A stretch of DNA of 52,318 nt from Minisyncoccota bacterium (GCA_035531495.1 DATKSU010000001.1:1-52318); one strand, 5' to 3'. Shown: positions 2,570 to 52,318, numbered from the stretch's first letter. Translations and numbers: made by a program. The notes: generated by a model from the sequence alone, not told the origin.

Positions 2570-4354
2570 GTGACGGATACGAGACCGAAATTCACCTGGG
2601 CCGAGAAGAAAGCCGCGCTTGCGCGGCAGCTTCGTCCTTACCGGAGTCTGCTCGTCACGCTCGGCATCGTCGAGGTGTTCGCCGCCGTCGCCAACGGCGT
2701 AGTCCCGTATCTGACCGGCAAATTCTTCGATGCGCTCATCACCCCGCATGCTATCGCGCTGCCGGGGTTCGGCGCCTATCCGGCCTGGGCGGTGCTGCTC
2801 GGCGCCTGGATACTCATCCAGCTCCTCGCGAACCTGACGAGCTTCGCGAGCGACCGCTATGAGCGCCATCTGACGACCGAGGTGGAAGCCGGTGTGCAAG
2901 CGCGCGCGTTCGTCCACCTGCTCACGCTCCCGGTCTCGTTCCACAAGAAGCACCGGACAGGCGAGATCGTCGATAACTTGAGTCGGGCCGGCTGGATGCT
3001 CGGGAGCATGATAAGCACGATTCTCTCTATCGCGCCGCAGTTCCTCACCATCGTCATCGGCGTCGGCATCTCATTCGCCATCTACCCGAGACTCGCGCTC
3101 GTCCTCCTCGCCGGTATCGCCGTCTACCTCGTCGTTCTCCTGCGCGTCCTGCCGCAGACGAGTCATTTCCAGGAAGAGGGGTTCCGCATCTGGAATCGCG
3201 CCTTCGGCGACGCGCAGGATGCGTACGCGAACGTCTCGACCGTAAAGCATGCCGGAGCCGAGGCGTACGAGGGCAAGCGCATCATGAGCGCGTTCTACGA
3301 GAAGGCTGTGCCGCTGTGGTATCGCATGGAGCGCGCCTGGAGCAACCTGAACTTCTCTCAGCGCATCATCGTTACCGCGACGCAAGGGGCGATACTCCTG
3401 TACTCGGTCTTCCTCATCGCCGGACACCAGATAACCATCGGCGATCTCATCGCCTTCAACGCATATGCCGCCATGATCATCGGTCCGTTCGTCTCCCTCG
3501 GCCGGCAGTGGCAGACCGTCCAGAACGGTCTCACGGCCGTCGCGCGCGTGGAACTCATCTTCGGCACGGCGCCCGAAGCCTATGAGCCGCCGGAAGCCAT
3601 CGCGCTGCCGGACGTGAAGGGGAATGTCTCGTTCGAAGATGTGCATTTCTCGTACGGAGCCGACCAGCCCGAGGTGCTCAAGGGCGTCTCGTTCGCCGCA
3701 AAGGCGGGCGAGGTCATCGCGCTGGTCGGCGAGACGGGCGTCGGCAAATCGACGACTGCCGACCTCATTTCGGCCTACTATTTCGCGACCGATGGCCGCA
3801 TTCTCATCGACGGCCACGATATACGCGACGTGAACCTGCGCGACCTGCGCCGCAGCATCGCCGTCGTCCCGCAGGAGGTCGTGCTCTTCAATGCGTCTAT
3901 CAAGGACAACATCCGGTACGGCCGCCCTGATGCGACCGACGAGGAGGTCATTGCGGCGGCGGAGCGCGCGCATGCGGGCGCGTTCATACGGAGATTTCCG
4001 GAGCAGTACGAGCAGGAGGTGGGGGAGCGCGGCATCAAGCTCTCGGTCGGCCAGAAGCAGCGCGTCGCTATCGCGCGCGCGATGCTGCGTGACCCGCACA
4101 TCCTCATCCTCGACGAGCCGACCTCGGCGCTCGACCCGGAGACCGAGAGCTATATCACCAAATCGCTTGAAGAGCTCATGGAAGATCGGACCACCTTCAT
4201 CATCGCGCATCGTCTCTCGACCGTCCGGGAGGCGGATCGCATCATCGTACTCGAGGACGGCCGCATCGCCGAGGAAGGGTCGCATGACGAGCTGATCGCG
4301 AAAAACGGCGCGTATGCTCGCCTCTACAACTTCCACATCGGACTGCGCGAGTAA
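2570..4354 (+). CDS. ABC transporter, fused permease/ATP-binding protein (MsbA/exporter type)
   Basis: An N-terminal six-TM exporter domain is followed by Walker A GETGVGKST, the signature LSVGQKQR and Walker B ILILDEPTSALD. Confidence 0.9.
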   Translation: MTDTRPKFTWAEKKAALARQLRPYRSLLVTLGIVEVFAAVANGVVPYLTGKFFDALITPHAIALPGFGAYPAWAVLLGAWILIQLLANLTSFASDRYERHLTTEVEAGVQARAFVHLLTLPVSFHKKHRTGEIVDNLSRAGWMLGSMISTILSIAPQFLTIVIGVGISFAIYPRLALVLLAGIAVYLVVLLRVLPQTSHFQEEGFRIWNRAFGDAQDAYANVSTVKHAGAEAYEGKRIMSAFYEKAVPLWYRMERAWSNLNFSQRIIVTATQGAILLYSVFLIAGHQITIGDLIAFNAYAAMIIGPFVSLGRQWQTVQNGLTAVARVELIFGTAPEAYEPPEAIALPDVKGNVSFEDVHFSYGADQPEVLKGVSFAAKAGEVIALVGETGVGKSTTADLISAYYFATDGRILIDGHDIRDVNLRDLRRSIAVVPQEVVLFNASIKDNIRYGRPDATDEEVIAAAERAHAGAFIRRFPEQYEQEVGERGIKLSVGQKQRVAIARAMLRDPHILILDEPTSALDPETESYITKSLEELMEDRTTFIIAHRLSTVREADRIIVLEDGRIAEEGSHDELIAKNGAYARLYNFHIGLRE

Positions 4355-4369
4355 TGCTATAGTTTCCCC

Positions 4370-5623
4370 ATGACGCTCGCGCAGGAGCTCAAGGAACGCG
4401 GCCTTATCGTCGACACCTCGGCACCGCCCGAGAAGATATTCGCTGCCCGTCGCACCGTCTATCTCGGCATCGATCCGACGGCGGACTCCATGCACGCGGG
4501 CCACCTCGTGCCCATCCTGCTCATGCGGCGGCTCGGCGAGGCGGGGAACAAACTCATCTTCCTCGTCGGCGGCGGGACGGGGCTCGTCGGCGATCCGAAG
4601 GAGGCGGGGGAGCGGCCGATGCTCGATGCGAAGACGGTCGCCGCGAATACACGCGCGCTCAAGCGCCAGCTGAAAGGCCTCATGAACGGCATCCCATTCA
4701 CGATGGCCGACAACGCCGACTGGCTCGCAAAGCTCAAGCTCCTGCCGTTCTTGCGCGAGATCGGCAAGCACTTCACGGTGAACGACCTTGTCAAGCGCGA
4801 CATCATCAAGAAGCGCCTCGAGACGCCTGACGAGAGCATCTCGTACACGGAATTCACCTATGCGCTCTTACAGGGTTATGATTTTCTGACCCTGAACGAG
4901 AAGTACGGCTGCGACCTCCAGGTCGGCGCCTCCGACCAGTGGACGAACATGCTCTCGGGCGTCGAGCTCATCCGCAAAAAGGCCGGAAGGGAGGCGTTCG
5001 CCTTCACGGTGCCGCTCATCACGGACGCGAACGGCAAGAAGTTTGGCAAGTCGGAAGGCAACGCCGTCTGGCTCGACGCGCGCAAGACCTCTCCGTTCCG
5101 TTTCTACCAGTTCTGGATGAATCTCCCGGATACGAACGTCGAACAGTATCTCAAAGTCTACACGTTCATGCCGCTCGCGGAGATTCAGGCGCTCATGGAG
5201 CTACACCGGAGGAGCCCCGGCGAGCGGCAGGCGCAAGAGACGCTCGCGCGCCTCGTGACGGAGCTCGTGCACGGCCCAGCCGCCACCGCGCAGGCGGCCG
5301 CGGCGACCGACGCTCTCTTCGGCGGCGTGCCCTTCGCCAATCTTTCGAACGAAGCGCGCGAAGTCGTTCTCGCCGAAGCGCCGTCGGTGACGCTCTCGAA
5401 GAAAGAGATTGCGGACGGCGTCCCGCTCGCCGATATCCTCATCTCGGGCGGCCTCGCTTCCTCCCGCTCCGACTCCCGCCGGCTCGTGGAAGGGAAGGGC
5501 GTGACGGTGAACGGAATGGTGCCCCAGGCGCCCGACCAGAAAGTCTATGCCGGCGACCTGCCGGGCGGCCACGCGCTCGTGCGCAAAGGCAAGCAGGGCG
5601 TCCTCATCCTCGTTTTGAAATAA
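4370..5623 (+). CDS. tyrS: tyrosyl-tRNA synthetase
   Basis: Class I HIGH-type motif (DSMHAGHL), a KFGKS (KMSKS-like) motif and a C-terminal S4-like domain. TGcTATAGT (4355-4363) lies 6 nt upstream of the ATG. Confidence 0.95.
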   Translation: MTLAQELKERGLIVDTSAPPEKIFAARRTVYLGIDPTADSMHAGHLVPILLMRRLGEAGNKLIFLVGGGTGLVGDPKEAGERPMLDAKTVAANTRALKRQLKGLMNGIPFTMADNADWLAKLKLLPFLREIGKHFTVNDLVKRDIIKKRLETPDESISYTEFTYALLQGYDFLTLNEKYGCDLQVGASDQWTNMLSGVELIRKKAGREAFAFTVPLITDANGKKFGKSEGNAVWLDARKTSPFRFYQFWMNLPDTNVEQYLKVYTFMPLAEIQALMELHRRSPGERQAQETLARLVTELVHGPAATAQAAAATDALFGGVPFANLSNEAREVVLAEAPSVTLSKKEIADGVPLADILISGGLASSRSDSRRLVEGKGVTVNGMVPQAPDQKVYAGDLPGGHALVRKGKQGVLILVLK

Positions 5624-6849: not shown

Positions 6850-8253
6850 ATGGAGCGCACCCTCATCGGCGAACTCGGAAAGCATGTCGGCGAAACCGTC
6901 TCCATAAGCGGCTGGGTGGACGTGCGTCGCGACCAGGGGAAGATGGTCTTCTTCGATTTCCGGGACCGTTCGGGAATCGTACAGGGCGTCGTTCTGCCGA
7001 AGAGCGAGGCGATGGAGGCTGCCAAAGACGTCCGCAACGAATACGTCGTGCGGATAGAGGGCGTCGTCAACAAACGCCCAGACAAGAACGTGAACGCAGG
7101 CGTCTTGAACGGCGACATCGAACTCGAGATAACGGCCGTCGAGGTCTTGAACCACTCGGAGCCGATGCCGTTCGATATCTCAGGCGACACGCGCGCCGTA
7201 GACGAGAACGTCCGCGCCGAGTATCGCTACCTCGACCTGCGCAGCCCTCGCTTGCGGAAGAACATGCAGGTGCGCAGCGAATTCGTCCGCCGCTGCCGCG
7301 AGCACCTCTTCGCGGGCGGCTTCATCGAGATAGAGACGCCGCTTCTGACCGAGTCCACGCCCGAGGGCTCGCGCGATTTCGTCGTTCCGTCGCGGCTCAA
7401 CCCCGGCAAATTCTATGCGCTCCCGCAGTCGCCCCAGCAGTACAAGCAGCTCCTCATGACGGCCGGTTTCGAGCGGTACTTCCAGATCGCCCGCTGCATC
7501 CGCGACGAAGACCTGCGCGCTGACCGCGGCTTCGAGCATACCCAGGTGGATATCGAGATGTCGTTCGTCACGATGGAAGACGTCATGCAAGCCGTGGAGG
7601 AGATGATCATCTCGGTGGTCGAGGCGATGGGGCACGTCATAAAGGAGAAGCCCTTCCCGCGCATCTCGTACAAGGACGCGATGGCGACGTACGGTGCGGA
7701 CAAGTTCGACCTGCGCACGGAAGAGGAGAAAGGGAAGGGCGTCCTCGCGTACGCCTGGGTCGTCAATTTCCCGTTCTTCGAGAAAACCGAGAAAGGCGGC
7801 TGGACCTTCACGCATAACCCGTTCTCAATGCCGGTTCCCGAGCACCTCGACTGGCTCATGAAGGGCGAGCATATCGGGGACATCCTCACAACGCAGTACG
7901 ACCTCGTCTGCAACGGCTTCGAGTCGGGCGGCGGTTCCATCCGCGCGCACAAGCCCGAGATACTCGAAGCCGTCTATAAGGTGATGGGTTTTTCGGGCGC
8001 GGAGCTCGAAGAACGCGTCGGCCACATGCTGCGCGCCTTCCGGCACGGCACGCCCCCGCACGGCGGCATCGCCCTCGGCGTAGAGCGCAACGTCATGAAC
8101 CTCACCGGCGAGTCGATGCTGCGGGAAGTGCAGGCCTTCCCGATGACGCGCGGCGGCCAGACCTCCGTCATGAAGGCGCCGAAGGAACTGTCGCAGAAGC
8201 AGCTCGACGAACTCCACCTTTCCATCAATGTACCTCGCGACGCCGAAAACTAA
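6850..8253 (+). CDS. aspS: aspartyl-tRNA synthetase, short form lacking the GAD insertion domain
   Basis: OB-fold N-terminus, bacterial-type LPQSPQQYKQLLM, FQIARCIRDED, and class II motif 3 GGIALGVERNVM. The length is 467 aa, compared with about 590 aa for canonical bacterial AspRS. Confidence 0.9.
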   Translation: MERTLIGELGKHVGETVSISGWVDVRRDQGKMVFFDFRDRSGIVQGVVLPKSEAMEAAKDVRNEYVVRIEGVVNKRPDKNVNAGVLNGDIELEITAVEVLNHSEPMPFDISGDTRAVDENVRAEYRYLDLRSPRLRKNMQVRSEFVRRCREHLFAGGFIEIETPLLTESTPEGSRDFVVPSRLNPGKFYALPQSPQQYKQLLMTAGFERYFQIARCIRDEDLRADRGFEHTQVDIEMSFVTMEDVMQAVEEMIISVVEAMGHVIKEKPFPRISYKDAMATYGADKFDLRTEEEKGKGVLAYAWVVNFPFFEKTEKGGWTFTHNPFSMPVPEHLDWLMKGEHIGDILTTQYDLVCNGFESGGGSIRAHKPEILEAVYKVMGFSGAELEERVGHMLRAFRHGTPPHGGIALGVERNVMNLTGESMLREVQAFPMTRGGQTSVMKAPKELSQKQLDELHLSINVPRDAEN

Positions 8254-8974
8254 CTTCACCATCCGGACGGACTCGTTCCAGGGCCCGTTCGAGCTCGTGC
8301 TCGAGCTCATCGAGGCGCACAAGCTTCTCATCAACGACCTTGCGCTCGCGAGCATCACCGAAGATTTCATCCAGCACGTGCGCGCGCAAGCATCATTCCC
8401 CATCGAGGAGACGGCGAATTTCATACAGATTGCGGCGACGCTGCTCCTCATCAAGTCGAAATCCCTCGTGCCGGACTTGACCCTGACCGAAGATGAGAGT
8501 GCGGACGTCGACGACCTCAAGCGCCGGCTCGAGGCCTATGAGAAGGTGCGCGAAGCGGCGCGCGAGCTCTCCCGCATCTATGGCCGAACCGTCATGTTCC
8601 CGGCAGGGGAGCGGCCGCCCGAGACCGTCTTTGCGCCCGCCCGCGACTTCACGAAGGCGGCCCTCGCCGACGCGCTCGCGCGCGTGCTCGCCGCGCGCGA
8701 GGAAGTCGAGGCGCTGCCCGAGGCGCGCGTGAAGCCGGTGGTGACCATCGAGGAGATGATGGAACGACTCGCCGCGCGCGTCCAGGGCGCGCTCACGCTC
8801 TCGTTCAAGGAATTCACGGGCTCCTCCAAGGAGAAAGTCGAAGTCATCGTGTCCTTCCTCGCGCTGCTCGAGCTCGTCAAGCAGGGCGCGGTCGCCGCCG
8901 AGCAGTACGCCGCTCACGGCGATATCCGCATCAGCCATACCGCGCCGGAGGCTACCCCGCGCTACGGTACCTGA
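8228..8974 (+). CDS. scpA: segregation and condensation protein A (kleisin)
   Basis: The FQGPFELVLELIEAHKLLINDLALASIT N-terminus is typical of ScpA. It is followed directly by scpB. The start overlaps the aspS 3' end by 26 nt. Confidence 0.8.
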   Translation: MYLATPKTNFTIRTDSFQGPFELVLELIEAHKLLINDLALASITEDFIQHVRAQASFPIEETANFIQIAATLLLIKSKSLVPDLTLTEDESADVDDLKRRLEAYEKVREAARELSRIYGRTVMFPAGERPPETVFAPARDFTKAALADALARVLAAREEVEALPEARVKPVVTIEEMMERLAARVQGALTLSFKEFTGSSKEKVEVIVSFLALLELVKQGAVAAEQYAAHGDIRISHTAPEATPRYGT

Positions 8975-31670: not shown

Positions 31671-32616
31671 ATGAAAAGGCGGGGTTAGGCGGATCAGCGG
31701 GCTCGGCTTCGCGCGAGACGGTAGCGCGCTCGAAGACGCGGAGCTTCGCGCTCCTCGCCCGACGATTCGCGAGGATTTCCACGCGCCCAGGCACGACGGG
31801 CTTCTTCGGCAAGAGCGAGCCGAGACCCTCGTACACCGCATTGCGCAGGATGCCCTTCACGATGCGGTCTTCGATGCTGTGGAAAGTGATGACGGCGAGC
31901 CGGCCGCGCGGCGCGAGCGCGGCGAGTGCGGCAGCAAGCCCGTCCCGCAGCGCCGCGAGCTCGTCGTTCGCCGCGATGCGCAGCGCCTGGAAGGTCTTCG
32001 TCGCCGGATGGATCTTGCGCTCGTGATACCAGCGCGGCGTGCCCGCGAGGACCGCCGTGACGAGCTGTCCGGTCGTGAGGATGCGCGCCTTCGCGCGCGT
32101 CGCGACGATGCTGCGCGTGATGCCGCGCGCGAATCGCTCTTCGCCGTACGTATAGATGAGATCGGCGAGCGCCTCTTCGGACATGCTGTTGACGAGGTCC
32201 GCAGCCGTCTCGCCGCCATCGGCGTACGTCATGAGGAGCGGCTCGTCCTTCTGGAACGAAAAGCCGCGCGGCGCGGCGATCTGGTAGCCGCTCCAGCCGA
32301 GATCGAAGAGCGCTTTGTGCACATGGCCGACGCCGAGTCGCTCGAGGATTCGGCCAAGATTGCGGAAATTGTCGCAGATGAGGTGCGCGATGGGACGATC
32401 GGCGCGCCGGTCCTCGGCGTATGCCGCGCGGGCGCGCTCGACGGCGGCGGAGTCGGCATCGATGCCGATGATGACGCCATCCTTGCCGAGCGCGGCGAGG
32501 AGCGCGGCAAAGTGCCCTGCTCCGCCGATGGTCGCATCGACGACGACATCATCCGGCTGGACGGCGAGCGCTTCAAGCGCTTCGGGAAGGAGGACGCTGT
32601 CGTGGCGCGCTTCCAT
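31663..32616 (-). CDS. rsmH: 16S rRNA (cytosine1402-N4)-methyltransferase
   Basis: HDSVLLPEALEAL...DATIGGAGH...DLGWSGYQ...FHSIEDRIVK. The long upstream part of the track ORF overlaps mraZ and was discarded. Confidence 0.9.
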   Translation of the reverse strand: MEARHDSVLLPEALEALAVQPDDVVVDATIGGAGHFAALLAALGKDGVIIGIDADSAAVERARAAYAEDRRADRPIAHLICDNFRNLGRILERLGVGHVHKALFDLGWSGYQIAAPRGFSFQKDEPLLMTYADGGETAADLVNSMSEEALADLIYTYGEERFARGITRSIVATRAKARILTTGQLVTAVLAGTPRWYHERKIHPATKTFQALRIAANDELAALRDGLAAALAALAPRGRLAVITFHSIEDRIVKGILRNAVYEGLGSLLPKKPVVPGRVEILANRRARSAKLRVFERATVSREAEPADPPNPAFSYA

Positions 32617-38121: not shown

Positions 38122-39145
38122 TGATGAAAAAGTCCGCGTAAGGACTCGGGTTCTCGGTGACGATGCCGGCGCCACGAACCACCGCGGTCAAGGGATCGGG
38201 CGCGACTTTGACCGGTACGCCGAGCATCTTCGCGAGCACTTGCGGCAAGCCGCGCAGGAGCGCGCCGCCGCCGAACACGGTCACGCCGCGCTCAAGGACG
38301 TCGGAAAGCAGTTCGGGGGGCGTGGCTTCGATGACTTCCTTCATGGCGTCCATGAGCGCATCAAGGGACGGCGCAAGGGCGTCGCGCACGTGTGCGTCGG
38401 AGATGGTGACTTCGCGCGGCAGCCCGGTCGCGAGGTCACGGCCGCGGATGCTCCTCGTGAGCGGCTCCGACAGGGGCGTTACCGCGCCGATGAAGATCTT
38501 CACTTCCTCGGCGGTGCGTTCCCCGATACCGAGCTTGAATTCGCTGTGCACGAAATCGATGATGTTCTCGTTGAAGTGGTCGCCTGCGATCTGCGAGCTC
38601 TTCGACGCGACGGAGCCCGAGAGCGCGATGACGGCGATGTCGGTCGTCCCGCCGCCGATGTCGAGGACCATGGTCCCGACGGCGTCCGCGACCGGCAGCT
38701 TCGCGCCGATGGCGCCCGCGGTCGGCTCTTCGAGGATGATGACTTCGCGAGCGCCGGCGTTCCTCGCCGCGTCGCGCACGGCGCGGCTCTGCACGTTCGT
38801 GACGCCCGTCGGCACGCCGATGACGACCCGCGGGCCGAAGAGCCGCGCGCGGCCGCCCTGCGCCTTGTTGATGAGGTACGTGAGGAGTTCCTCCGTCACC
38901 TCGAAGTCCGAGATGACGCCGTGCGAGAGCGGACGGACGGTGCGGATGTGCGGTGGCGTCTTGCCGAGCATCACCTTCGCCGCCTGTCCCACCGCGACGA
39001 CCTGGTTGGTCTTGTCGTTGACCGCGACGACCGACGGCTCGTTGATGACGATGCCGCGGCCGCGCACGTACACGAGCGTGTTCGACGTGCCGAGGTCGAT
39101 CCCGATGTCGGAGCTGAAGAGCGAATTCTTCGAGAATCTCGCCAT
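38093..39145 (-). CDS. mreB: rod shape-determining protein MreB
   Basis: The actin-fold motifs DIGIDLGTSNTLV, NEPSVVAV and VLDIGGGTTDIAV are present. Confidence 0.9.
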   Translation of the reverse strand: MARFSKNSLFSSDIGIDLGTSNTLVYVRGRGIVINEPSVVAVNDKTNQVVAVGQAAKVMLGKTPPHIRTVRPLSHGVISDFEVTEELLTYLINKAQGGRARLFGPRVVIGVPTGVTNVQSRAVRDAARNAGAREVIILEEPTAGAIGAKLPVADAVGTMVLDIGGGTTDIAVIALSGSVASKSSQIAGDHFNENIIDFVHSEFKLGIGERTAEEVKIFIGAVTPLSEPLTRSIRGRDLATGLPREVTISDAHVRDALAPSLDALMDAMKEVIEATPPELLSDVLERGVTVFGGGALLRGLPQVLAKMLGVPVKVAPDPLTAVVRGAGIVTENPSPYADFFINEEDILSEA

Positions 39146-39148
39146 ACG

Positions 39149-40383
39149 CTAGCGCGCGAGGAGCGCCGCGCGCGGCTTCTTCTCAACCGTCCCGGTCGCG
39201 CGATCGACGACCTCGAACGTCCCGCTTGCAGCGGCCTCCTTGCCCACCACGATGCGTGACGGGATGCCGATGAGATCGCTCTCCGCGAACTTCTGGCCCG
39301 CGCTCATGTCGCGATCGTCGTAGAGGGTCTCGATGCCGGCCGCGACGAGGTCCTCGTAGAGTGCGTCCGCCCCTTTCGCTACCGCATCGCCCGGCTTGCC
39401 GAGAGAGACCAGGTGCACGGAAAACGGGGCGACTTCTGCAGGCCAGACGAGACCTTTCTCGTCGGCAAGCGTCTCCACGATGGTGCCCATGAGGCGCGTC
39501 GGGCCGATGCCGTAACAGCCCATGACGACCGGCCGGGACTTCCCTTCCCGGTCGAGGTAAGAAAGGCCCAAGGGCTCGGAGAACCGCGTCCCGAGCTTGA
39601 AGATGTTGCCGACCTCGACCGCCGGCGCTTCCTCGAGCTCATCTTTCGAGAGGCCGAGGTCCGCGAGCACCTCGTCGGTGAGCACTTCTTCGTTGATGGC
39701 GAGGTGCTTCTCCCGCGCAACGTAGACGGTGTCCTCGCCGGCATCGCAGAGCGTCTGGAACTCATGGCTGTACTTGGAGAACGCCCCGCCCGACGCGAAG
39801 GTCAGGAAGGTGCGGTCGCCGATGCCTGCGCGGCGGAAAACGGAGCGGTAGGCCTCGGTCGCCTTCTCGTAGAAGACGTCGAGGTCCTTCTCGTCGGCGT
39901 GGAAGGAATAGAGGTCCTTCATGAGGAATTCCCGCCCGCGCATGATGCCGGACTTCGCGCGCTCTTCGTTGCGGAATTTCGTCTGTATCTGGTACACAGA
40001 GAACGGCAGGTCGCGGTACGAGCTCACGTGCTGCGACGCGATGTGCGTGATCGCTTCTTCTTGCGTCCAGCCAAGCCGAGTTCGCCGCCTGCGTTCAAGG
40101 ACGTCTTGAACCATACGTCCTCGTCCCAGCGATCGGTCTTCTTCCAGAGTTCCGGATTCTGGAGCGACGACAAGAGTACTTCCTGTCCGCCAAGAACGTT
40201 CATCTCCTCTCGGACGATGCGGACGATGTTGTCGAGAGTGCGTAGTCCCAAGGGGAGGTACGAATACACGCCGGCCATCTCCTTCTGGATGAAGCCTGCG
40301 CGGATGAGGAGCTGCGCGTTCTTCACCACTTCGTCCGCCGGCGCCTCGCGTCGCGCTTTCGTGAAGAGCTCTGATTGCCGCAT
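39149..40383 (-). pseudogene. proS: prolyl-tRNA synthetase, reading frame broken by a 1-nt frameshift near 40075 (true pseudogene or assembly error)
   Basis: The N-terminal ORF (MRQSELFTKARREAP...NAGGELG) and the C-terminal ORF (LGWTQEEAITHI...YQIQTKFRNEERAKSGIMRGREFLMKD...GCYGIGPTR) together make a complete ProRS. They lie in frames offset by one nucleotide. 1235 nt equals 3n-1. Confidence 0.85.
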
Positions 40384-40429
40384 AATGGCCTCAAGTATAT
40401 GCCGAGGGCGCGGCAAGCGCAAAAATCGG

Positions 40430-41521
40430 CTAGCCGACGATGCGGAAGATGTCGTGCGCCGTCACGACGACCATGAGGAGGATGAGGAATGCGAAGCCGG
40501 TCAGGTTGACGGCGCGCGCGACGCTCGGCTTGATGGGCCGGCGGATGATGCCTTCGATGACGACGAAGAGGAGCCGGCCGCCGTCGAGGGCCGGGATGGG
40601 GATGAGGTTGATGATTGCGAGGTTGATGGAGATGACGGCCATGAGGGACAGGAGGTCGCCGAATCCCTGCGCGGACGCGGCGCCGACGGCGCCCGCGATG
40701 CCGACGGGACCCGAGACCTGCGAGAGGTTCGCCGAGAGAGTGAAGATGCCGTAAAAGAGGTGCCAGAGCCCGGCCGCGGTGAGCATGGTGGCGCCCCAGG
40801 TGAGCGCCGCGCCCTGCGTGATCGCGTGCGGCAGCGAGACCGGGACGACGCCGATGGTCGCGACCTCGATGCCGAGCGCGTACCGGCTCGGGTCGTCCGC
40901 GACGAGGCCCCGCACCGGCGTCGCTGTAATCGTGCGCTCGACGCCTTCCGCGTCGACGACGTGCAGCGTGACGGCAGCGCCGCCGCTTCCCGCGATGAAC
41001 GACGAGAAGCCTGCGGGGTCGACGGCATGCCACGTGCCGTTCGCGTCGCGTGCGTCCGTGACCGAGTCCCCGAGCGCGATGCCGGCAAGCGCGGCCGGCG
41101 TGTTCGGCAGCACGTTCACGACCGCGAGCGAGGTGTCGGACGCCTGCGCGACCTCGTTCGGCGTGAGCGCGCGCGGCGTCCCCGCGACGAGCGCGCCCGT
41201 GATGAGCACGTATGCGAAGAGGAGATTCATCGCGACGCCCGCGACGAGCACGATGGCCTGCTTGATGCGGGAGCGCGATGAGAAGGAGCGCGGACCGGTT
41301 TCGACGCCGTCCTCGCCGTAGATCTTCACGAAGCCGCCGAATGGCAGCCAGTTGAGCGTGTACGAGGTCTCGCCGATTGTCGCGATCGTCGCCGCGCGCG
41401 GCGGGAAGCCGATGCCGAATTCGTCCACGCGCATGCCGGAGAGCTTCGCAGCGATGAAGTGCCCGAGCTCATGCACGAGGATGAGGGCGACGATGACGAT
41501 GAGGAACGTGAGTATCTCCAT
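40430..41521 (-). CDS. rseP: RIP metalloprotease RseP (site-2 protease, M50) with PDZ domain
   Basis: HELGHF in TM1, a central PDZ (PAALAGIALGDSV) and a C-terminal NLIPIPALDGG motif. Confidence 0.85.
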   Translation of the reverse strand: MEILTFLIVIVALILVHELGHFIAAKLSGMRVDEFGIGFPPRAATIATIGETSYTLNWLPFGGFVKIYGEDGVETGPRSFSSRSRIKQAIVLVAGVAMNLLFAYVLITGALVAGTPRALTPNEVAQASDTSLAVVNVLPNTPAALAGIALGDSVTDARDANGTWHAVDPAGFSSFIAGSGGAAVTLHVVDAEGVERTITATPVRGLVADDPSRYALGIEVATIGVVPVSLPHAITQGAALTWGATMLTAAGLWHLFYGIFTLSANLSQVSGPVGIAGAVGAASAQGFGDLLSLMAVISINLAIINLIPIPALDGGRLLFVVIEGIIRRPIKPSVARAVNLTGFAFLILLMVVVTAHDIFRIVG

Positions 41522-47483: not shown

Positions 47484-47723
47484 CTATGCCTTCGCATGGT
47501 GCGCGCGCAGATACGCGTCGATGTCCGCAGATTCGTACATCTCGACGCCGTTGTCGGCATCGACGAGGTACGGCACCTGCCGCTTGCCGCCGCGCGCGAT
47601 GAGCTCCGCGGCGACCGCGTCATCGGCGATGTTCTTCTGGTCAAAGTCGATGCCGAGCTCCTGCCCTGTCGCGAGCACGCGCGCGCAGAACGGGCATCCG
47701 GTCTTCACGTATAAGGTAAGCAT
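47484..47723 (-). CDS. glutaredoxin-like protein (CPFC active site)
   Basis: YVKTGCPFCARV...RQVPYL is a thioredoxin fold. TATACT (47732-47737, minus) lies 8 nt upstream of the ATG. Confidence 0.75.
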   Translation of the reverse strand: MLTLYVKTGCPFCARVLATGQELGIDFDQKNIADDAVAAELIARGGKRQVPYLVDADNGVEMYESADIDAYLRAHHAKA

Positions 47724-47746
47724 ATGCGGGCAGTATAGCGCAGTTG

Positions 47747-48100
47747 TTACTCACTCCTATCCGGGATGATCATCCCCGCTCCGATTTCAGAGTGGCAATT
47801 CTTACAAACTAGGACACATTTCTCGGCTTCTCTGACCAAAGAATCCCACGAATACGACAATCCCTTCACACTCAGCGCGAATTTCTTATTCCCTGGATCC
47901 TTATGATGGAAATCAAGAGCGCCGGCATACCTCTTATATCCGCATAGAGAACACTTGCCGCCGAACATCTCGACTAATTTCTCTTTCTTGCGGCGACGAT
48001 TCTGCATGACGGCTGTCGAAGCGCACTTGCCGCAGCGATACCACCCTTCAGTTCTGGGGAAAAATTTCGTCAGTCCGTGAATCTTGCAAATCCTTTGCAT
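47747..48100 (-). CDS. HNH endonuclease (His-Me finger) with an N-terminal Cys cluster
   Basis: CSLCGYKRYAGALDFHHKDPGNK...LVCKNCHSEI is an HNH core. The N-terminus carries C...CGKC. G+C is low. TATACT (48109-48114, minus) lies 8 nt upstream of the ATG at 48100. Confidence 0.75.
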   Translation of the reverse strand: MQRICKIHGLTKFFPRTEGWYRCGKCASTAVMQNRRRKKEKLVEMFGGKCSLCGYKRYAGALDFHHKDPGNKKFALSVKGLSYSWDSLVREAEKCVLVCKNCHSEIGAGMIIPDRSE

Positions 48101-48174
48101 ATGAGAACAGTATAACACCGGGTGTTAATATTGTTTTCCTGGGCAGCCTGTGTATAATTTTCCTGTTCGTGTAT

Positions 48175-48459
48175 TCCGCGGTAGCTCAATGGTAGAGCAG
48201 CTCCCTGTGGCGAACGCAGCTTCCTGGAGGAATCCAGGTCGAATAACGAGGTGAATTGCTGGAAACCCCTTGCGGGCGATCAGCAGCCAAGCTCCGCTTC
48301 CGCGGAGAAGGTTCAGAGACTATCCCTAACGGGAGTACCCGACGGTATCGTCAGGGGAAGCGCCTCGCATCGAGAACCGATGATGATATAGTCCACGCCT
48401 TCAGCAATGAGGGAACACGTGTAAGGAGTTGGTTGTAGGTTCGAGTCCTACCCGCGGAG
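48175..48459 (+). tRNA. tRNA-Asn (anticodon GTT) interrupted in the anticodon by a 213-nt group I intron
   Basis: Exons: TCCGCGG-TA-GCTC-AATGGTA-GAGC-A-GCTCC-CTGT | TAA-GGAGT-TGGTT-GTAGG-TTCGAGT-CCTAC-CCGCGGA-G. The acceptor has 7 perfect bp. The spliced loop is CTGTTAA. TATAAT lies at 48153-48158. Confidence 0.85.
48209..48421 (+). ncRNA. group I intron (IC3-like core, no ORF)
   Basis: P1: exon CUGU|G pairs with CGCAG (48215-48219), giving the U-G wobble at the 5' splice site. The last intron nucleotide is G. P2 is CCUGGA-GGAA-UCCAGG. The core strings CAGCCAAGC and GAAGGUUCAGAGACUA closely resemble the Azoarcus and Tetrahymena cores as I recall them. Confidence 0.85.
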
Positions 48460-50133
48460 CAGACTGCCTGATTTGGGGTCAAAGAACCCAAATCGGACAG
48501 TGATTAGGGGGTTTTCGGAGGTTCGAAAATTATTTCGAGGTTCCGGAACTTCCATCACAACGGAATGAGTATTGTTAACAGAAATATCCTGCAAATGGCC
48601 GCCTTTGGCGGCTTTTTGCATGGGTTCTAAAATTTCTATGTCGAGTCCTTTCTGGATGCGTTCTGCGAGCTTCCGGACGGCCGGTTTGAATTCGTAGGTT
48701 GTATCACCGTTCTTGAGACGCAGAGCGGAGAACATCTGCGCGATGAGGACACGCCGCTGATCTGGCGAACGCTTGAGGTAAATCTCCTTGGCTCGGAGCG
48801 CAAGGTCGAGAATGTTCTGCCACAGCTCATAGTATTTCGCTTCCTTGGACTGAATCCTCTCCAGCTCTTGCGTTATGCTGGTGCGCTCGTCGTCGATTTC
48901 CTTCTCCTTGCGCTTCCAGTGCTCGGCGGTTATCTCCTCGTCGAGCTTAGCGTCAAATAGCCGCTCCTTGCGGGCTCCTAGGGCGTTATAGCGGGTCTGA
49001 AGCTGGTTCCGCTGGTGTTCCTTATAGGCAACCTCCTCCGCGTGATTCTGCTTGATTTTGAGGCGAATCAGCTCGGCTTCCTCTGGGGTCAAAGTTTCGA
49101 ATATCTGGAATGCTCTCGTGATCTGCTTTTCCACCTTCTCCTCACGAGCGCAGATTTGCTGCGAGCAGTCGCGATAGTGGCTGCAATGGTAATAAATATA
49201 ATTGTGGACGTTGCCGTTCTGTTGGCGCTTCGTCTTCAGTTCGGCCGTAATGGTGCTCCCGCACTCGCCGCATGTAATCAGTTTCCTGAAAGCGAAATTG
49301 CGCCGCTGAAAGTGCGGTGCTTTTTTGCCGGAGAGAGTCGCTTGCACTTGGTCGAACAAACCTTGAGAGATGAGTGGCTCGTGCTTTCCTTGTCCGCGAA
49401 TCATGTCGTTCCAGCGGATCATCCCACAATAGAACGGGTCGCGGAGCATATCGTCGAGGCGGCTTTTAACCAGCCGATTGCCGGACGGTGAACGCAATCC
49501 TTCTTTGTAGAGCTGATTAGCAAGCGCCTTTATCGAGTAGTTGCCGGTCGCGTATAGTTCGAACGCGCGACGCATGAACGGAGCCATCTTCGGGTCAGGA
49601 ACATGCGTTTTGTGCCCACGTTCGCCGACGGTCATATATCCGAGCTTTGCGCGACATGGAATCCACCCTTGTTGTATTTTCTCCTCCTGACCTTTTTTGA
49701 CCTCCTCCGAAAGATTGTCGACGTAGTTCTTCGCGAAAAGGATTCTTACGCCCATATTCAACTTTTCCTGCGACCGAGAGTTTTTTGTAAGCACAAGCGA
49801 GTCCTTCACAAGATGCACTTGTCGCGCCTCATCTTCTTCGAGCCAGTCATCTATCGTAACCAAGTCTCTATAGTTACGCGTTAGCCGGTCAGCCTTCTCG
49901 CAGATAATCGCCGGTATCTGATTCTTCGCCGCGAAATTCACCATCTGCGTGAAGACCTGCCGTTGTTGCTTTCCCGCCGCCGATTCCGAAACTGAAAAGA
50001 CTTGCTCGATGTCGAATCCGTGCTTCTCCGCGTATTCCGTAAGAAATCTCTCTTGCGAGGGCAACGAAAACCCCGTCTCCTCTTGTTCCTTTGAGGAGAC
50101 TCGGCAGTAGAGAATTGCTTTCGGTTTTTCCAT
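48448..50133 (-). CDS. large serine recombinase (phage-integrase/transposase type)
   Basis: N-terminal resolvase domain AILYCRVSSKEQ (catalytic Ser), a recombinase domain, a zinc ribbon CGECGS...YYHCSHYRDC and a C-terminal coiled-coil. SD is AAGGAG. The stop codon lies inside the tRNA-Asn T-stem. Confidence 0.9.
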   Translation of the reverse strand: MEKPKAILYCRVSSKEQEETGFSLPSQERFLTEYAEKHGFDIEQVFSVSESAAGKQQRQVFTQMVNFAAKNQIPAIICEKADRLTRNYRDLVTIDDWLEEDEARQVHLVKDSLVLTKNSRSQEKLNMGVRILFAKNYVDNLSEEVKKGQEEKIQQGWIPCRAKLGYMTVGERGHKTHVPDPKMAPFMRRAFELYATGNYSIKALANQLYKEGLRSPSGNRLVKSRLDDMLRDPFYCGMIRWNDMIRGQGKHEPLISQGLFDQVQATLSGKKAPHFQRRNFAFRKLITCGECGSTITAELKTKRQQNGNVHNYIYYHCSHYRDCSQQICAREEKVEKQITRAFQIFETLTPEEAELIRLKIKQNHAEEVAYKEHQRNQLQTRYNALGARKERLFDAKLDEEITAEHWKRKEKEIDDERTSITQELERIQSKEAKYYELWQNILDLALRAKEIYLKRSPDQRRVLIAQMFSALRLKNGDTTYEFKPAVRKLAERIQKGLDIEILEPMQKAAKGGHLQDISVNNTHSVVMEVPEPRNNFRTSENPLITVRFGFFDPKSGSLLRG

Positions 50134-50140
50134 AGAAATA

Positions 50141-50473
50141 TCACTCCTTGGCTACCAAGATGCCATAGAGTTTCTTCACACCTTTCTTCAGTGTTGATTC
50201 TTGCTGCTTGGGAAGACTGGCTCTGACTGAAGCCGGAGTTTTCCCTTGCGACTCAAGCATCTTGATTGCGTTCGGACTATCAATCGGCACTAGGTTTGCA
50301 TTTCCGCACAACTTGCAAACCTTCTTTGTTCCGCTATTTCGCCATATCTCGTAAATGATGCCCGGCAGAATAAAAAAGCACAGTAGAATCAGTGTAATCC
50401 ATATCGAGCCGGGAATTTCTTCCTTTGGCGAGCCTACATGCCCGCAGTTCGTGCACACCATCGGATCTTTCAT
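50141..50473 (-). CDS. zinc-ribbon membrane protein, 110 aa
   Basis: The CTNCGH...CKLCGN Cys pairs flank one TM helix (IWITLILLCFFILPGIIY). No family was recognised. Confidence 0.55.
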   Translation of the reverse strand: MKDPMVCTNCGHVGSPKEEIPGSIWITLILLCFFILPGIIYEIWRNSGTKKVCKLCGNANLVPIDSPNAIKMLESQGKTPASVRASLPKQQESTLKKGVKKLYGILVAKE

Positions 50474-50477
50474 AGTT

Positions 50478-50597
50478 TTGGACGCCTATTGGTAATTGCC
50501 TGGACAACTGTAATGCCCCCACAAGGGTTTGACAGCCTTGCGGCTGACCGGCGTCCAAGCCAGGCCCCTTGTGGAGGCATTACAGGCTTGGACGCCG
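50478..50597. repeat. nested inverted/direct repeat cluster (20-bp inverted repeat, 13-bp inverted repeat, three copies of TTGGACGCC)
   Basis: 50508-50527 is complementary to 50566-50585 (19 of 20). CGGCGTCCAAGCC (50549-50561) is perfectly complementary to 50585-50597. TTGGACGCC occurs direct at 50478 and 50588 and inverted at 50550-50558. An inner hairpin CAGCC-TTGC-GGCTG lies at 50533-50546. Confidence 0.75.
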
Positions 50598-50646
50598 TTA
50601 TTCAGTTGTTCAATTAGTTTAGCATTCATACTGCCTTCAACAATGG

Positions 50647-50868
50647 CTACATTTTCTCTGGCAACCCCACAAGTAGCCGCTCCATTCTCATGAGACGTTC
50701 TTCGATTTCTATCCAGTCCTTCATTTCGGATGAGCTGAGATTTACTGATACTATTTTGCCGTCCTTAATGACCACCTTTTCGGAATACCTAGAGTTTACG
50801 AATACCCTCGTTCTTTTGATTCGATTTTCTTGATCCTCAAGCATTTGCATGATTTTGTCTTTTGCCAT
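50647..50868 (-). CDS. hypothetical protein, 73 aa
   Basis: The ORF is in operon orientation between the ParB-like gene and the repeat cluster. The product is charged and helical. No homology was recognised. Confidence 0.45.
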   Translation of the reverse strand: MAKDKIMQMLEDQENRIKRTRVFVNSRYSEKVVIKDGKIVSVNLSSSEMKDWIEIEERLMRMERLLVGLPEKM

Positions 50869-50874
50869 ATTTAT

Positions 50875-51615
50875 TTAGTTAGAGTTTTTGTAATGTTGCT
50901 CGACGATATCGAGCATCTTTGCGAACAGTGCCGACACGTTGCGGATATTCTCGCGTTCAGAAACGGTTGCGAGCACCTCTCGTAGATGTTCGAAATCTGC
51001 CTTGTCCGCGAGATATACTTCTGCATCCTTTTCGAGCAATTTGAGCACCTCGTCGAACTTTTCTTTTTGCTTTGGCAAGAACAGGATCTGCAACATCTCG
51101 TAGTCGAAATCGAACACGATGTCGTCCGCCCTTATAGCGGGCAGGTCGAAGTCGAGTTCACCATCGAATATTCCAGACTCAAGCTTCGATTCGATGCTTT
51201 GTATTTCATTGAATAGTTCCGCAAGCATAATCGGGTCGTCGTAGCCGGTGAGTGCGTTGTGCGCCAACTGCTTTGCGCGGATCTGGTCGCGCGATAGTTC
51301 TTCTTCAATCACCATCACAAACACTTCTCGCAATCCTGCAGCGCGAGCCGCACGTGTCCGATGATGCCCAGAGATAATGTGGAACTCTTCGTTGTCCGAC
51401 GCGTTTTTCTTGATGACACACAGCGGCAGAGATTCGAGTCGTTTGCCATCTGCAATCGTGATCTTCATCCGGTCGAGTTTGTCCGGACTCATCACACGAG
51501 CATTCTTGTCTTGCTCGCGCAGGAGGTCGATGTCGACTTTCCAGATTGCGATTCCGTTGCCCATATCGAGCACCCTCTCTTTGATTGGTTCGTTTTCCAT
51601 ACTTCTATGCGGCAA
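50875..51615 (-). CDS. ParB-like nuclease (ParB/Srx fold) domain protein
   Basis: EFHIISGHHRTRAARAAG is the ParB/sulfiredoxin-type GHHR motif in the N-terminal domain. The C-terminal domain is unassigned. Confidence 0.75.
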   Translation of the reverse strand: MPHRSMENEPIKERVLDMGNGIAIWKVDIDLLREQDKNARVMSPDKLDRMKITIADGKRLESLPLCVIKKNASDNEEFHIISGHHRTRAARAAGLREVFVMVIEEELSRDQIRAKQLAHNALTGYDDPIMLAELFNEIQSIESKLESGIFDGELDFDLPAIRADDIVFDFDYEMLQILFLPKQKEKFDEVLKLLEKDAEVYLADKADFEHLREVLATVSERENIRNVSALFAKMLDIVEQHYKNSN

Positions 51616-52318
51616 CAGCCACGTTAGCTACTAATGCACGTTCTTCATCGAGAAACTGGCGCACCACACCCTTGAAATCCTGCTCGCGGAAATCGGTGTC
51701 GTAGAGGATTTTATACATACCGCCGTTAGCGCGCCCCTCCTTCAATCGTTCGCAGGAGAGTGCCTTCAAGATGCCGTTATTGAGCTTCACACGGCGATAC
51801 TTTGAGAGGCAGGTAGTCCGGAGTCCACGAAGCCTGTAGACGCGGTTTACGCGGCTTGCAGTGCGATACAACACGTCGGCAAACTCGTTGCAGGTAATCG
51901 CCAGCATGAGCAGACGATTCGCCCTCGGCATGTTTCGGACCGGCGCGTTGAATCCGTAATTTTCGAACACGCGGTCGCTCTTCAAACCAAACAAAGAGTT
52001 CGTCATGAAGCCGACAGTCGCGAACACTTTGCCGTCCACAAGCATGAGGAAATATTGCTCCGCGCCGGTGTTCCCGAGTTTGTGTGCGAACAGGTCGCGG
52101 TAATAGAGAGCCTGCTGTTCTGGCACAGATACGAAACTGATCTTGCTGTCATAAGTCAGTTCATCGCCATTCATGAACACTGGTGCTGGGTAAGGCTTCA
52201 CACCTCGCGAGGCCATAAAGTCTACGGATGAGCGATACTGGAATCCTTCTAGAATCTCTGGCTTCGTAAGTAGCCAGTAGTCGCGCTTGTCTACATCATT
52301 CTCTTTGCAGAAGATTAC
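51605..52318 (-). CDS. hypothetical protein, 5' end outside the window (reading frame open to the edge)
   Basis: The frame of the 51605..52216 ORF continues without a stop for the 34 codons up to position 52318 (VIFCKENDVDKRDYWLL...). It overlaps the ParB-like gene start by 11 nt. No family was recognised. Confidence 0.55.
   Translation of the reverse strand, partial: VIFCKENDVDKRDYWLLTKPEILEGFQYRSSVDFMASRGVKPYPAPVFMNGDELTYDSKISFVSVPEQQALYYRDLFAHKLGNTGAEQYFLMLVDGKVFATVGFMTNSLFGLKSDRVFENYGFNAPVRNMPRANRLLMLAITCNEFADVLYRTASRVNRVYRLRGLRTTCLSKYRRVKLNNGILKALSCERLKEGRANGGMYKILYDTDFREQDFKGVVRQFLDEERALVANVAVAA

Follow-up and report, generated by a model that had tools for sequence, protein, structure and literature searches.

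Characterised large serine recombinases mostly target protein-coding genes, and the attP and attB sites that they join share few bases. The described system that comes closest to the locus analysed here is the integration module of the ssrA islands of Dehalococcoides, in which a CcrB-like serine recombinase of 540 amino acids (aa), DsiB, is encoded on the reverse strand beside attL by a gene that contains a 20-bp ssrA repeat (McMurdie et al. 2011, PMC3146451). It is followed by a small serine recombinase (DsiA), a RecF-like gene, a ParB-domain gene and a Mom homologue, with a pseudo-tRNA embedded in mom about 4.4 kb from attL (PMC3146451). Islands of the Islander type, which occupy tRNA and transfer-messenger RNA (tmRNA) genes, use tyrosine integrases (PMC4383910), and among 937 tycheposon-like elements, studied with the tycheposons of Prochlorococcus, 27 use a large serine recombinase (bioRxiv 10.1101/2020.12.28.424599). 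Here we analyse a stretch of 52,318 nucleotides (nt) from a Minisyncoccota bacterium (DATKSU010000001.1; the window, meaning this whole stretch), which ends in DNA of low G+C content carrying a large serine recombinase beside a tRNA-Asn gene; the element is seen only up to the contig end at position 52318, which covers its first 3.9 kb. Our reading, to which we give a probability of about 80%, is that the low-G+C stretch is composite, formed by a homing unit and by the attL side of an integrative element, both located at the tRNA-Asn of the host.

The resemblance to the Dehalococcoides islands extends over several features. The recombinase of the window falls in the same class of about 540–560 aa and lies beside attL on the reverse strand, the two enzymes having their best match to CcrB in common; the putative att core falls within the recombinase gene, over its last codons; a ParB gene is followed by a gene of Mom type (GNAT fold), likened by order and fold; the relatives of the window have a tRNA-like element in the same place, 4.1–5.0 kb from attL; and low G+C and variable cargo are common to both. 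The differences lie in the target, which is tRNA-Asn(GUU) instead of tmRNA, in the host, which belongs to Patescibacteria instead of Chloroflexota, and in the genes: the window has a Zn-ribbon membrane protein and a 73-aa open reading frame (ORF) in place of DsiA and the RecF-like protein, and its relatives carry a tyrosine recombinase, DUF488 and a DnaD-like gene. With Islander islands and tycheposons the locus shares the apparent integration at the 3' end of a tRNA, in which the gene is regenerated and a displaced fragment marks the far end, as well as small elements, replication genes, defence or adaptive cargo and streamlined genomes; it differs from them in its serine enzyme, in an integrase gene that reads across the att core into the tRNA, and in the phylum. 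The enzyme itself has the Resolvase–Recombinase–zinc ribbon layout of A118/LI, phiC31, Bxb1, CcrA/B and XisF and would, like them, be the sole integrase next to the att site, but in contrast to the serine recombinases of phages and staphylococcal cassette chromosomes its target is the 3' end of a tRNA, with a shared core of 15–20 bp inside the recombinase gene.

This is an ordinary kind of element, common in bacteria of the candidate phyla radiation (CPR), in which the phylum and the target are new; no description of a CPR family of serine recombinases at tRNA 3' ends was found in the literature searched. The mobile DNA of ultra-small CPR/Patescibacteria is poorly described. Through the comparison, a large uncultured recombinase family with more than 2,500 members is tied to the one well-described precedent, the ssrA islands of Dehalococcoides, and the locus exemplifies how foreign genes enter a streamlined genome of 64% G+C: at the end of a tRNA gene and with a serine instead of the usual tyrosine integrase.

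Composition Break and Features at the Junction

The G+C content is 0.640 over positions 1–47740 (95 segments of 500 bp, standard deviation 0.035, minimum 0.522) and 0.502 over positions 47741–52318, where nine 500-bp segments range from 0.434 to 0.534, with z values of −3.0 to −5.9 versus the host. Host segments as long as the island give a correlation of tetranucleotide usage with the host of 0.94 ± 0.015, the island itself only 0.68 (z −17.8), and G+C at third codon positions (GC3) is 0.51–0.64 in island genes versus 0.78–0.86 in fmt, hpf, DUF167 and grx. The switch in composition is located between the start of grx (47723) and the stop codon of the HNH gene (47747). The low-G+C stretch is horizontally acquired DNA. 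An earlier annotation made from the sequence alone, hereafter the original prediction, had proposed an abrupt low-G+C island reaching the window edge, with its break near the glutaredoxin promoter (~47740), and both points are borne out; the G+C and tetranucleotide computations, which it had named as a possible refutation, revealed a significant discontinuity. Its hand-counted island values of 38–50% were somewhat low, the true mean being 50%. All the contents that it listed, namely HNH endonuclease, intron-bearing tRNA, 561-aa recombinase, Zn-ribbon protein, repeats, ParB-like protein and last ORF, were found in the window. The features around the junction are the following:

47484–47723, minus strand: glutaredoxin-like gene (grx), the last high-G+C host gene (Pfam GST_N_3/Glutaredoxin; GC3 0.85; synteny with fmt-hpf-DUF167).
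47747–48118, minus strand: free-standing HNH endonuclease gene, 123 aa, divergent from tRNA-Asn (PHROG HNH families, 4e-23 and 9e-21).
48175–48208, plus strand: tRNA-Asn(GUU) exon 1 (ARAGORN intron mode).
48209–48421, plus strand: group I intron of 213 nt in the anticodon loop (Rfam RF00028).
48422–48459, plus strand: tRNA-Asn exon 2, putative host-side arm of attL (ARAGORN intron mode, tRNAs of relatives).
48447–48461, no strand assigned: putative att core CCTACCCGCGGAGCA, made up of 13 nt at the tRNA 3' end and the 2 nt beyond it, with the end of the recombinase gene on the other strand.
48448–50133, minus strand: large serine recombinase, 561 aa, predicted integrase of the element (Pfam, PHROG and structure match).
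48463–48498, plus strand: stem-loop immediately behind the tRNA, within the recombinase reading frame (positional conservation).

The Host tRNA-Asn and the Slot Behind It

The synteny of the region was scanned with the neighbouring fmt protein against one genome per species, which gave 52 loci (the window's own genome is not among them), mostly from metagenome-assembled genomes (MAGs) of Kaiserbacteria/Paceibacterota, with 57–74% identity. The order def-fmt-hpf-DUF167-grx is kept across the fmt loci (L001–L042), with hpf, DUF167 or grx absent in some, and in about 25 loci grx is followed by tRNA-Asn(GUU) on the plus strand, intronless in 15 of them and with an intron of 186–582 nt in about nine. 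The exons of the window are 91–97% identical to the tRNA-Asn of these syntenic relatives. Such synteny, which holds with or without an element, shows that tRNA-Asn is the host's own gene and the likely integration target, and hence decides between the two roles, host target or cargo, that the original prediction had left side by side. The left edge that this prediction gave the element, near 47740, has to be abandoned in favour of the 3' end of the tRNA (~48447–48461); the similarity of the window to the element loci L056 and L168 begins exactly at 48422.

The split tRNA is missed by ARAGORN in default mode, while the intron mode gives 48175–48460 with an intron of 213 nt and calls it Thr(UGU), because the program shifts both splice sites by two bases. 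We rejected this call: the tRNA body, the G73 discriminator, the relatives and an intron-less allele (see below) indicate Asn(GUU), and excising 48209–48421 yields a tRNA-Asn cloverleaf.

The slot that follows tRNA-Asn is variable. A convergent recombinase occupies it in the window and in five relatives (L012, L015, L028, L034 and L040), overlapping the tRNA by 13 or 43 nt in each case, and other genes occupy it in most relatives. These slot recombinases are only 24–37% identical to each other, except for one pair at 51%, and their cargo differs, so they represent independent insertions and not a conserved block. The synteny comparison suggested with the original prediction thus found recombinases at the same site in relatives, but divergent and with different cargo, a result that leaves the island interpretation standing.

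In four relatives a 20-nt copy of the tRNA 5' end, 90–95% identical, lies about 150 nt upstream of tRNA-Asn (L002 12841–12860, L003 3928–3947, L005 6301–6320, L012 12447–12466). This copy, which is absent from the window, may be the scar of an event on the 5' side.

The Recombinase and Its Putative Attachment Core

The 561-aa protein matches the Pfam domains Resolvase (PF00239, 1.7e-21, residues 6–156), Recombinase (PF07508, 2.4e-17) and Zn_ribbon_recom (PF13408, 3.4e-8), as well as the integrases of PHROG 95 (1.9e-79). Residues R11, V12 and S13, in the catalytic-serine region of the resolvase domain, are invariant in 27 homologues, and residues 188–446 match the C-terminal domains of the A118 integrase (PDB 4KIS), the sole structural match. 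The gene is preceded, as originally predicted, by an AAGGAG Shine-Dalgarno sequence, 9 nt upstream of its ATG. Among NCBIfam families the nearest named ones are CcrB (the best, 5e-35) and XisF, both well below their cut-offs, and identity to the integrases of deposited phage records does not exceed 28%. Homologues number more than 2,500, and those with a source name come from MAGs of Patescibacteria/Paceibacterota; their alignment has the consensus C-terminus ...LLRG. Look-ups of the exact protein, and of two start variants of the ParB-like protein, returned no match.

The recombinase gene converges on tRNA-Asn and overlaps it by 13 nt, with the four codons (LLRG) and the stop at its end lying antisense to the tRNA's 3' acceptor strand. 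This arrangement is a property of the family: among 62 non-redundant metagenome loci having sequence beyond the recombinase stop codon, 46 have that codon inside a convergent tRNA, which is tRNA-Asn in 33. The other overlapped tRNAs are Gln, Tyr, Ser, Arg, Val and His, and the overlap lengths cluster at 13, 15 and 40 nt. Complete copies are found in three loci. The element of L066, 6.7 kb long, is flanked by CCTACCCGCGGAGCA, identical to the 15-mer of the window, while those of L057 (9.9 kb) and L111 (8.2 kb) have repeats of 17 and 20 bp, respectively, at the same tRNA position; in all three the flanking repeat consists of the last 13–19 nt of the tRNA plus 1–2 nt. When the tRNAs of the window and L056 are compared, differences occur up to 48445 and identity prevails from 48447 onward. 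By analogy with these relatives, CCTACCCGCGGAGCA is the candidate crossover region also in the window, the attR of which would lie off the contig. A long direct repeat of the tRNA, as the original prediction envisaged for attR, is not to be expected, given that the complete relatives have only 15–20 bp. No tRNA-end repeat of at least 12 nt was found within 9–10 kb in seven further relatives (L012, L015, L028, L034, L040, L166 and L168); their elements are longer or cut by contig ends.

How would such an integration leave both genes functional? The proposed scheme is that the recombinase joined attB, corresponding to the last ~15 nt of tRNA-Asn, to an attP contained in the 3' end of the recombinase gene itself, the shared core CCTACCCGCGGAGCA keeping the tRNA and the recombinase gene whole before and after the event. 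In the 13-nt class of overlaps the shared core holds both the tRNA end and the LLRG-stop codons, so that tRNA and recombinase gene would be intact in either state. Upon integration the element would also supply a new hairpin behind the tRNA. A stem-loop is present at the position of 48463–48498 in 21 family loci, with differing stem sequences and often with a T run after it, and attR of L066 and L057 retains the original hairpin and T run of the host; the hairpin of the window probably came with the element and would replace the terminator of the tRNA. Should enzymes of this family prove active, serine integrases with a conserved attB at a tRNA end could serve for DNA integration in organisms that are not yet engineerable.

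Two observations on recombinases of the family may be added. In 21 family loci the recombinase coding region contains, some 75 nt beyond the tRNA end, the nearly invariant sequence GGTTCGAAAAT (48521–48531 in the window); it encodes an FRTS motif, with CGA as the Arg codon in about 18 of the 21 loci, and resembles a tRNA T-loop. In L169, a second serine recombinase of 600 aa (2688–4490) is found together with genes for a primase and a D5 helicase behind the first element, 16 kb from tRNA-Asn, with no tRNA-end remnant beside it; the two may have accreted in tandem or belong to a single larger element.

The HNH Gene and the Group I Intron

The region 47747–48421 is predicted to be a homing-type unit separate from the recombinase element. 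The intron matches RF00028 at 48212–48414 with 62.3 bits, versus a gathering threshold of 50, and the HNH gene has a G+C of 0.476 and a GC3 of 0.56. Homologues of the HNH protein with 46–78% identity lie within the intron of tRNA-Asn in four loci (L002, L030, L060 and L106) and are free-standing beside tRNA-Asn in four others (L008, L024, L085 and L094), with an intron-less tRNA in L024 and L085. Some of the loci having an HNH homologue at tRNA-Asn possess a recombinase element and some do not. In the metagenome data presented in the next section, the HNH gene, the host flank and exon 1 are joined on one Logan contig with a depth of 12.3 in run X1, the corresponding contig of run X3 having a depth of 9.9. 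We consider the unit separate because its homologues occur without the recombinase element and because it shares contig and depth with the host flank. As a side observation, the intron-encoded and free-standing members of this HNH family at the tRNA-Asn of Paceibacterota look like snapshots of the movement of an endonuclease into or out of an intron.

In the scheme suggested by these genes, the HNH nuclease would cut intron-less alleles of tRNA-Asn, which would then gain the intron, and perhaps the nuclease gene too, by copying during repair. The situation recalls collaborative homing, in which a free-standing endonuclease lies beside an endonuclease-less group I intron, for example F-CphI beside the intron of cyanophage psbA. 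Here too the nuclease gene is outside the intron but adjoins the intron-bearing gene, whereas relatives have it inside the intron; the difference is that the target is a chromosomal tRNA gene of a bacterium and that homing is predicted from the genes alone. Homing might also carry the integrated element from strain to strain by co-conversion, the HNH/intron unit and the att core being separated by 38 nt. Three selfish layers, namely intron, homing nuclease and integrative element, are superimposed at one tRNA gene, so that an island call based on composition can merge distinct elements.

Related Elements and Kind of Element

Three close relatives of the element indicate its gene content. In the locus L055/L056, which adjoins an intron-less tRNA-Asn, identity to the window is 80% for the recombinase, 82% for the ParB-like protein, 86.5% for the GNAT part and 67.5% for the Zn-ribbon protein. 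L168, a related MAG, has an element at the same tRNA-Asn on the side of grx; its recombinase, ParB and GNAT proteins are 79–93% identical to those of the window, its Zn-ribbon protein 73% and its equivalent of the 73-aa ORF 35%, with host proteins at 59–75%. The fact that recombinase, ParB and GNAT are closer than the host proteins argues for horizontal spread. The third close relative is L166/L169, whose ParB is 72% identical to that of the window. Moving away from attL, the order in the relatives is recombinase, an ORF of 71–74 aa (with or without small variable ORFs), ParB-like, DAM-like/GNAT-like and a tRNA-like element, and then DUF488, a tyrosine recombinase, small ORFs and a protein of about 240 aa (scored as DnaD-like only in L056, PHROG 8e-18). 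As cargo, one close relative carries an AlwI-type restriction enzyme with its methylase, and another a methylase together with AAA_13 and a ResIII nuclease; the complete element of L066 contains a DnaD/O-like gene, DUF4145, DUF3761 and unknowns. Capsid, portal, tail and large-terminase genes are absent from the window and from the 6.7–16 kb available for the close relatives.

A broader view of the family was obtained from 150 ORFs lying within 6.5 kb of 28 family recombinases, for which the 25 commonest Pfam and PHROG families were listed. The commonest are HTH_36/DnaD/O-like initiators, primases, Prim-Pol, rolling-circle Rep, methylases, DpnII, parts of CBASS (cyclic oligonucleotide-based antiphage signalling systems) and reverse transcriptase; there are a few matches to Zot and to small terminase, and no capsid, portal or large terminase among the 25 families listed. 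In scans of IMG/VR no close relative of the recombinase, of ParB or of the full DAM/GNAT protein was found. These comparisons fit a small plasmid-like or mobilisable integrative element with defence and DNA-modification genes rather than a tailed prophage. From the same relatives, the DNA beyond 52318 should contain the tRNA-like element, DUF488, the tyrosine recombinase, a DnaD-like organiser and restriction-modification or defence cargo.

Metagenome Depth and Alternative Explanations

Population data come from the assembled contigs of three 2019 soil metagenome runs (X1, X2 and X3) in which the window is present. The host side has a depth of 12.3 in X1, 7.5 in X2 and 9.9 in X3. An intron-less allele of tRNA-Asn, in which 48208 is joined directly to 48422 with 30 identical nt on each side, is present in X1 (depth 7.3 vs 12 for the intron-bearing form) and X2 (3.8 vs 13.3), and no intron-less path was found in the contigs of X3; its co-occurrence fits ongoing gain or loss of the intron or a sister strain. 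A look-up of the Zn-ribbon protein returned short contigs only, the best of which reaches 367 nt past the window end, and other assemblies (L139–L143) end within the element itself or at most 367 nt from that end, which fits microdiversity. Overall, the depths are compatible with polymorphism of the element among co-occurring strains.

Several points weigh against our composite reading and are best considered together with the alternatives that they favour. The right end, attR and replication genes are outside the window, the size, completeness and exact core of the element are deduced from relatives, and no excision or empty-site junction is seen in the assembled contigs of the runs. The island might be the integrase-proximal end of a tailed temperate phage, with its structural genes beyond the contig end. 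This idea draws on PHROG families matching the HNH, recombinase, ParB and GNAT proteins, on the homology of the DAM-like/GNAT-like and ParB-like genes to a pair that directly precedes the terminase genes in the tailed Faecalibacterium phage FP_Brigit and Microbacterium phage ValentiniPuff, and on recombinases of 34–37% identity encoded by viral contigs of 28–49 kb in IMG/VR. We nevertheless consider it quite improbable, since the closest relatives extend 6.7–16 kb beyond the recombinase without structural or large-terminase genes, complete members of the family measure only 6.7–9.9 kb, replication and defence genes are the commonest in the survey of 150 ORFs, and scans of IMG/VR gave no close relative of the three proteins. 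The original prediction spoke of an integrative element or prophage fragment; foreign DNA, mostly belonging to an integrative element, is what stands, the prophage being the weaker reading, as the close relatives show neither capsid nor portal nor large terminase. Far less probable is that everything from 47740 to the end is one element carrying the intron-bearing tRNA-Asn as its cargo. The break in composition at 47740 does precede both the HNH gene and the tRNA, but tRNA-Asn lies beside grx/DUF167 in ~25 relatives, most of which lack the recombinase, its exons are those of the relatives' tRNA-Asn (91–97% identity), similarity to related elements starts only with exon 2, and the HNH gene and intron share the contig and depth of the host flank, from which the depth of the element differs. 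It is scarcely credible, finally, that the block is old, vertically inherited Kaiserbacteria chromosome with a low G+C due to function and not to mobility: recombinase genes do follow tRNA-Asn in five syntenic relatives, but they are 24–37% identical among themselves and to that of the window, with unrelated cargo, other genes fill the slot in most relatives, the recombinase, ParB and GNAT proteins of L168 are 79–93% identical against 59–75% for host proteins, and the tetranucleotide signature is foreign.

The remaining alternative concerns the contig itself, which would be chimeric if the element of a co-occurring strain or species with intron-less tRNA-Asn had been joined to the host through the shared 38 nt of exon 2. 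The element has about half the depth of the host in X1 (7.6 falling to 6.3) and X2 (4.6), values resembling those of the intron-less allele and not of the host side; a 30-mer of exon 2 is common to this allele and to several tRNA-Asn contigs of other co-occurring species; and assemblies L139–L143 break inside the element. With the 30-mer so shared, the linkage of element and host rests on the original assembly, whose contig spans the junction, and on X3. In the latter run a single contig of depth 9.9 starts in the host, crosses the intron and reaches 48452, the contigs show no path lacking the intron, and the element nearly equals the host in depth (9.1 vs 9.9), its first 626 nt, in the recombinase, being at 9.1 and subsequent variants at 5.8 and 3.3, which sum to 9.1. 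The MAG L168, moreover, has a related element at the same tRNA-Asn beside grx. A chimera is thus improbable, and even then the element would sit at a tRNA-Asn with this exact 3' end.

Genes and RNAs Beyond the Recombinase

The rest of the window contains the following features:

50141–50473, minus strand: Zn-ribbon protein with a central membrane hairpin, 110 aa (ORF; two CxxC pairs flanking a hydrophobic stretch).
50478–50612, no strand assigned: nested inverted repeats forming a long intergenic hairpin, the repeat cluster (repeat search and RNA fold).
50647–50868, minus strand: small ORF of 73 aa, conserved in position (ORF call).
50875–51615, minus strand: ParB-N-domain ("ParB-like nuclease") protein, 246 aa, or 241 aa from the ATG at 51600 (ParB_N 3e-5; PHROG 7405 1.9e-52).
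51605–52318, minus strand: C-terminal 237 aa of a DAM-like and GNAT-phage-like protein, cut by the contig end (PF22559 4e-10).

The ParB-like protein is 82–87% identical to its homologues in L056 and L168 and 31–35% to the phage proteins that precede terminase genes. Its neighbour has full-length relatives of about 470–495 aa combining PF22555 and PF22559, which are 86–93% identical to the part present in the window; contig L139 lengthens the ORF to 359 aa, and FP_Brigit and ValentiniPuff have a homologue of 480 aa, encoded upstream of ParB. ParB homologues activate DNA-modifying enzymes of phages (PMC13229309). Judged by these enzymes and by the ParB-Mom pair of the Dehalococcoides islands, the ParB-like and DAM-like/GNAT-like pair is probably a module for DNA modification or self-marking. 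PADLOC assigned no defence system to the genes of the window.

Directly before the ATG of the DAM-like/GNAT-like gene, three relatives present a tRNA-like element (L056 5717–5789, L166 8508–8579, L168 1935–2007), with covarying acceptor stems (TGCGGAA/TTCCGCA, TGCGGAT/ATCCGCA and TGCGGGT/ACCCGCA), a T-loop-like GGTTCGA and the triplets ATA, TCA and CTA in the anticodon loop. The Rfam tRNA model, searched on the L056 copy only, remains below threshold. An equivalent element is expected about 200–1200 nt to the right of the window end. In evolutionary terms, the block of recombinase, ParB, Mom-type protein and tRNA-like element might represent one ancient mobility module, found in the tmRNA islands of Dehalococcoides, in the tRNA-Asn elements of Patescibacteria and, minus the recombinase, in the terminase-proximal region of phages. 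The ParB/Mom-type pair and the tRNA-like RNA would then not be cargo, but would mark or prepare the DNA of the element, or steer the direction of the recombinase in place of a missing recombination directionality factor. We regard this idea as speculative and rather unlikely.

The Zn-ribbon protein gives only a weak match to Pmp3 in Pfam and has homologues of 67–73% identity in the same place in L056 and L168. ORFs of 71–74 aa are found after ParB in L055/L056, L166 and L168, with 35–39% identity to the 73-aa ORF in L166 and L168 and no tblastn match in L056. Neither the 110-aa nor the 73-aa protein matches a resolvase or RecF in Pfam, PHROGs, NCBIfam or PADLOC.

Elsewhere in the window, the intron mode of ARAGORN called a tRNA-Ser at 31720–32438 (minus strand, intron of 628 nt) and a tRNA-Val at 38389–41177 (plus strand, intron of 2695 nt), both probably artefacts, as Rfam has no tRNA or intron there.

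In the repeat cluster the inverted repeats have arms measuring 20, 13 and 10 nt, of which the first is 95% and the second 100% complementary, and they fold with −69.5 kcal/mol (z −4.0). We rejected the cluster as a LOOT RNA, none having been found even with lax filters; the spacer, which corresponds to the place of LOOT in relatives, has a different hairpin of 110 nt at 50501–50612. LOOT RNA (RF03000, 53–84 bits) is present in three related elements, 1.5–3 kb from the recombinase: at 8221–8335 on the plus strand in L056, and on the minus strand at 8158–8281 in L066 and at 8404–8515 in L057.

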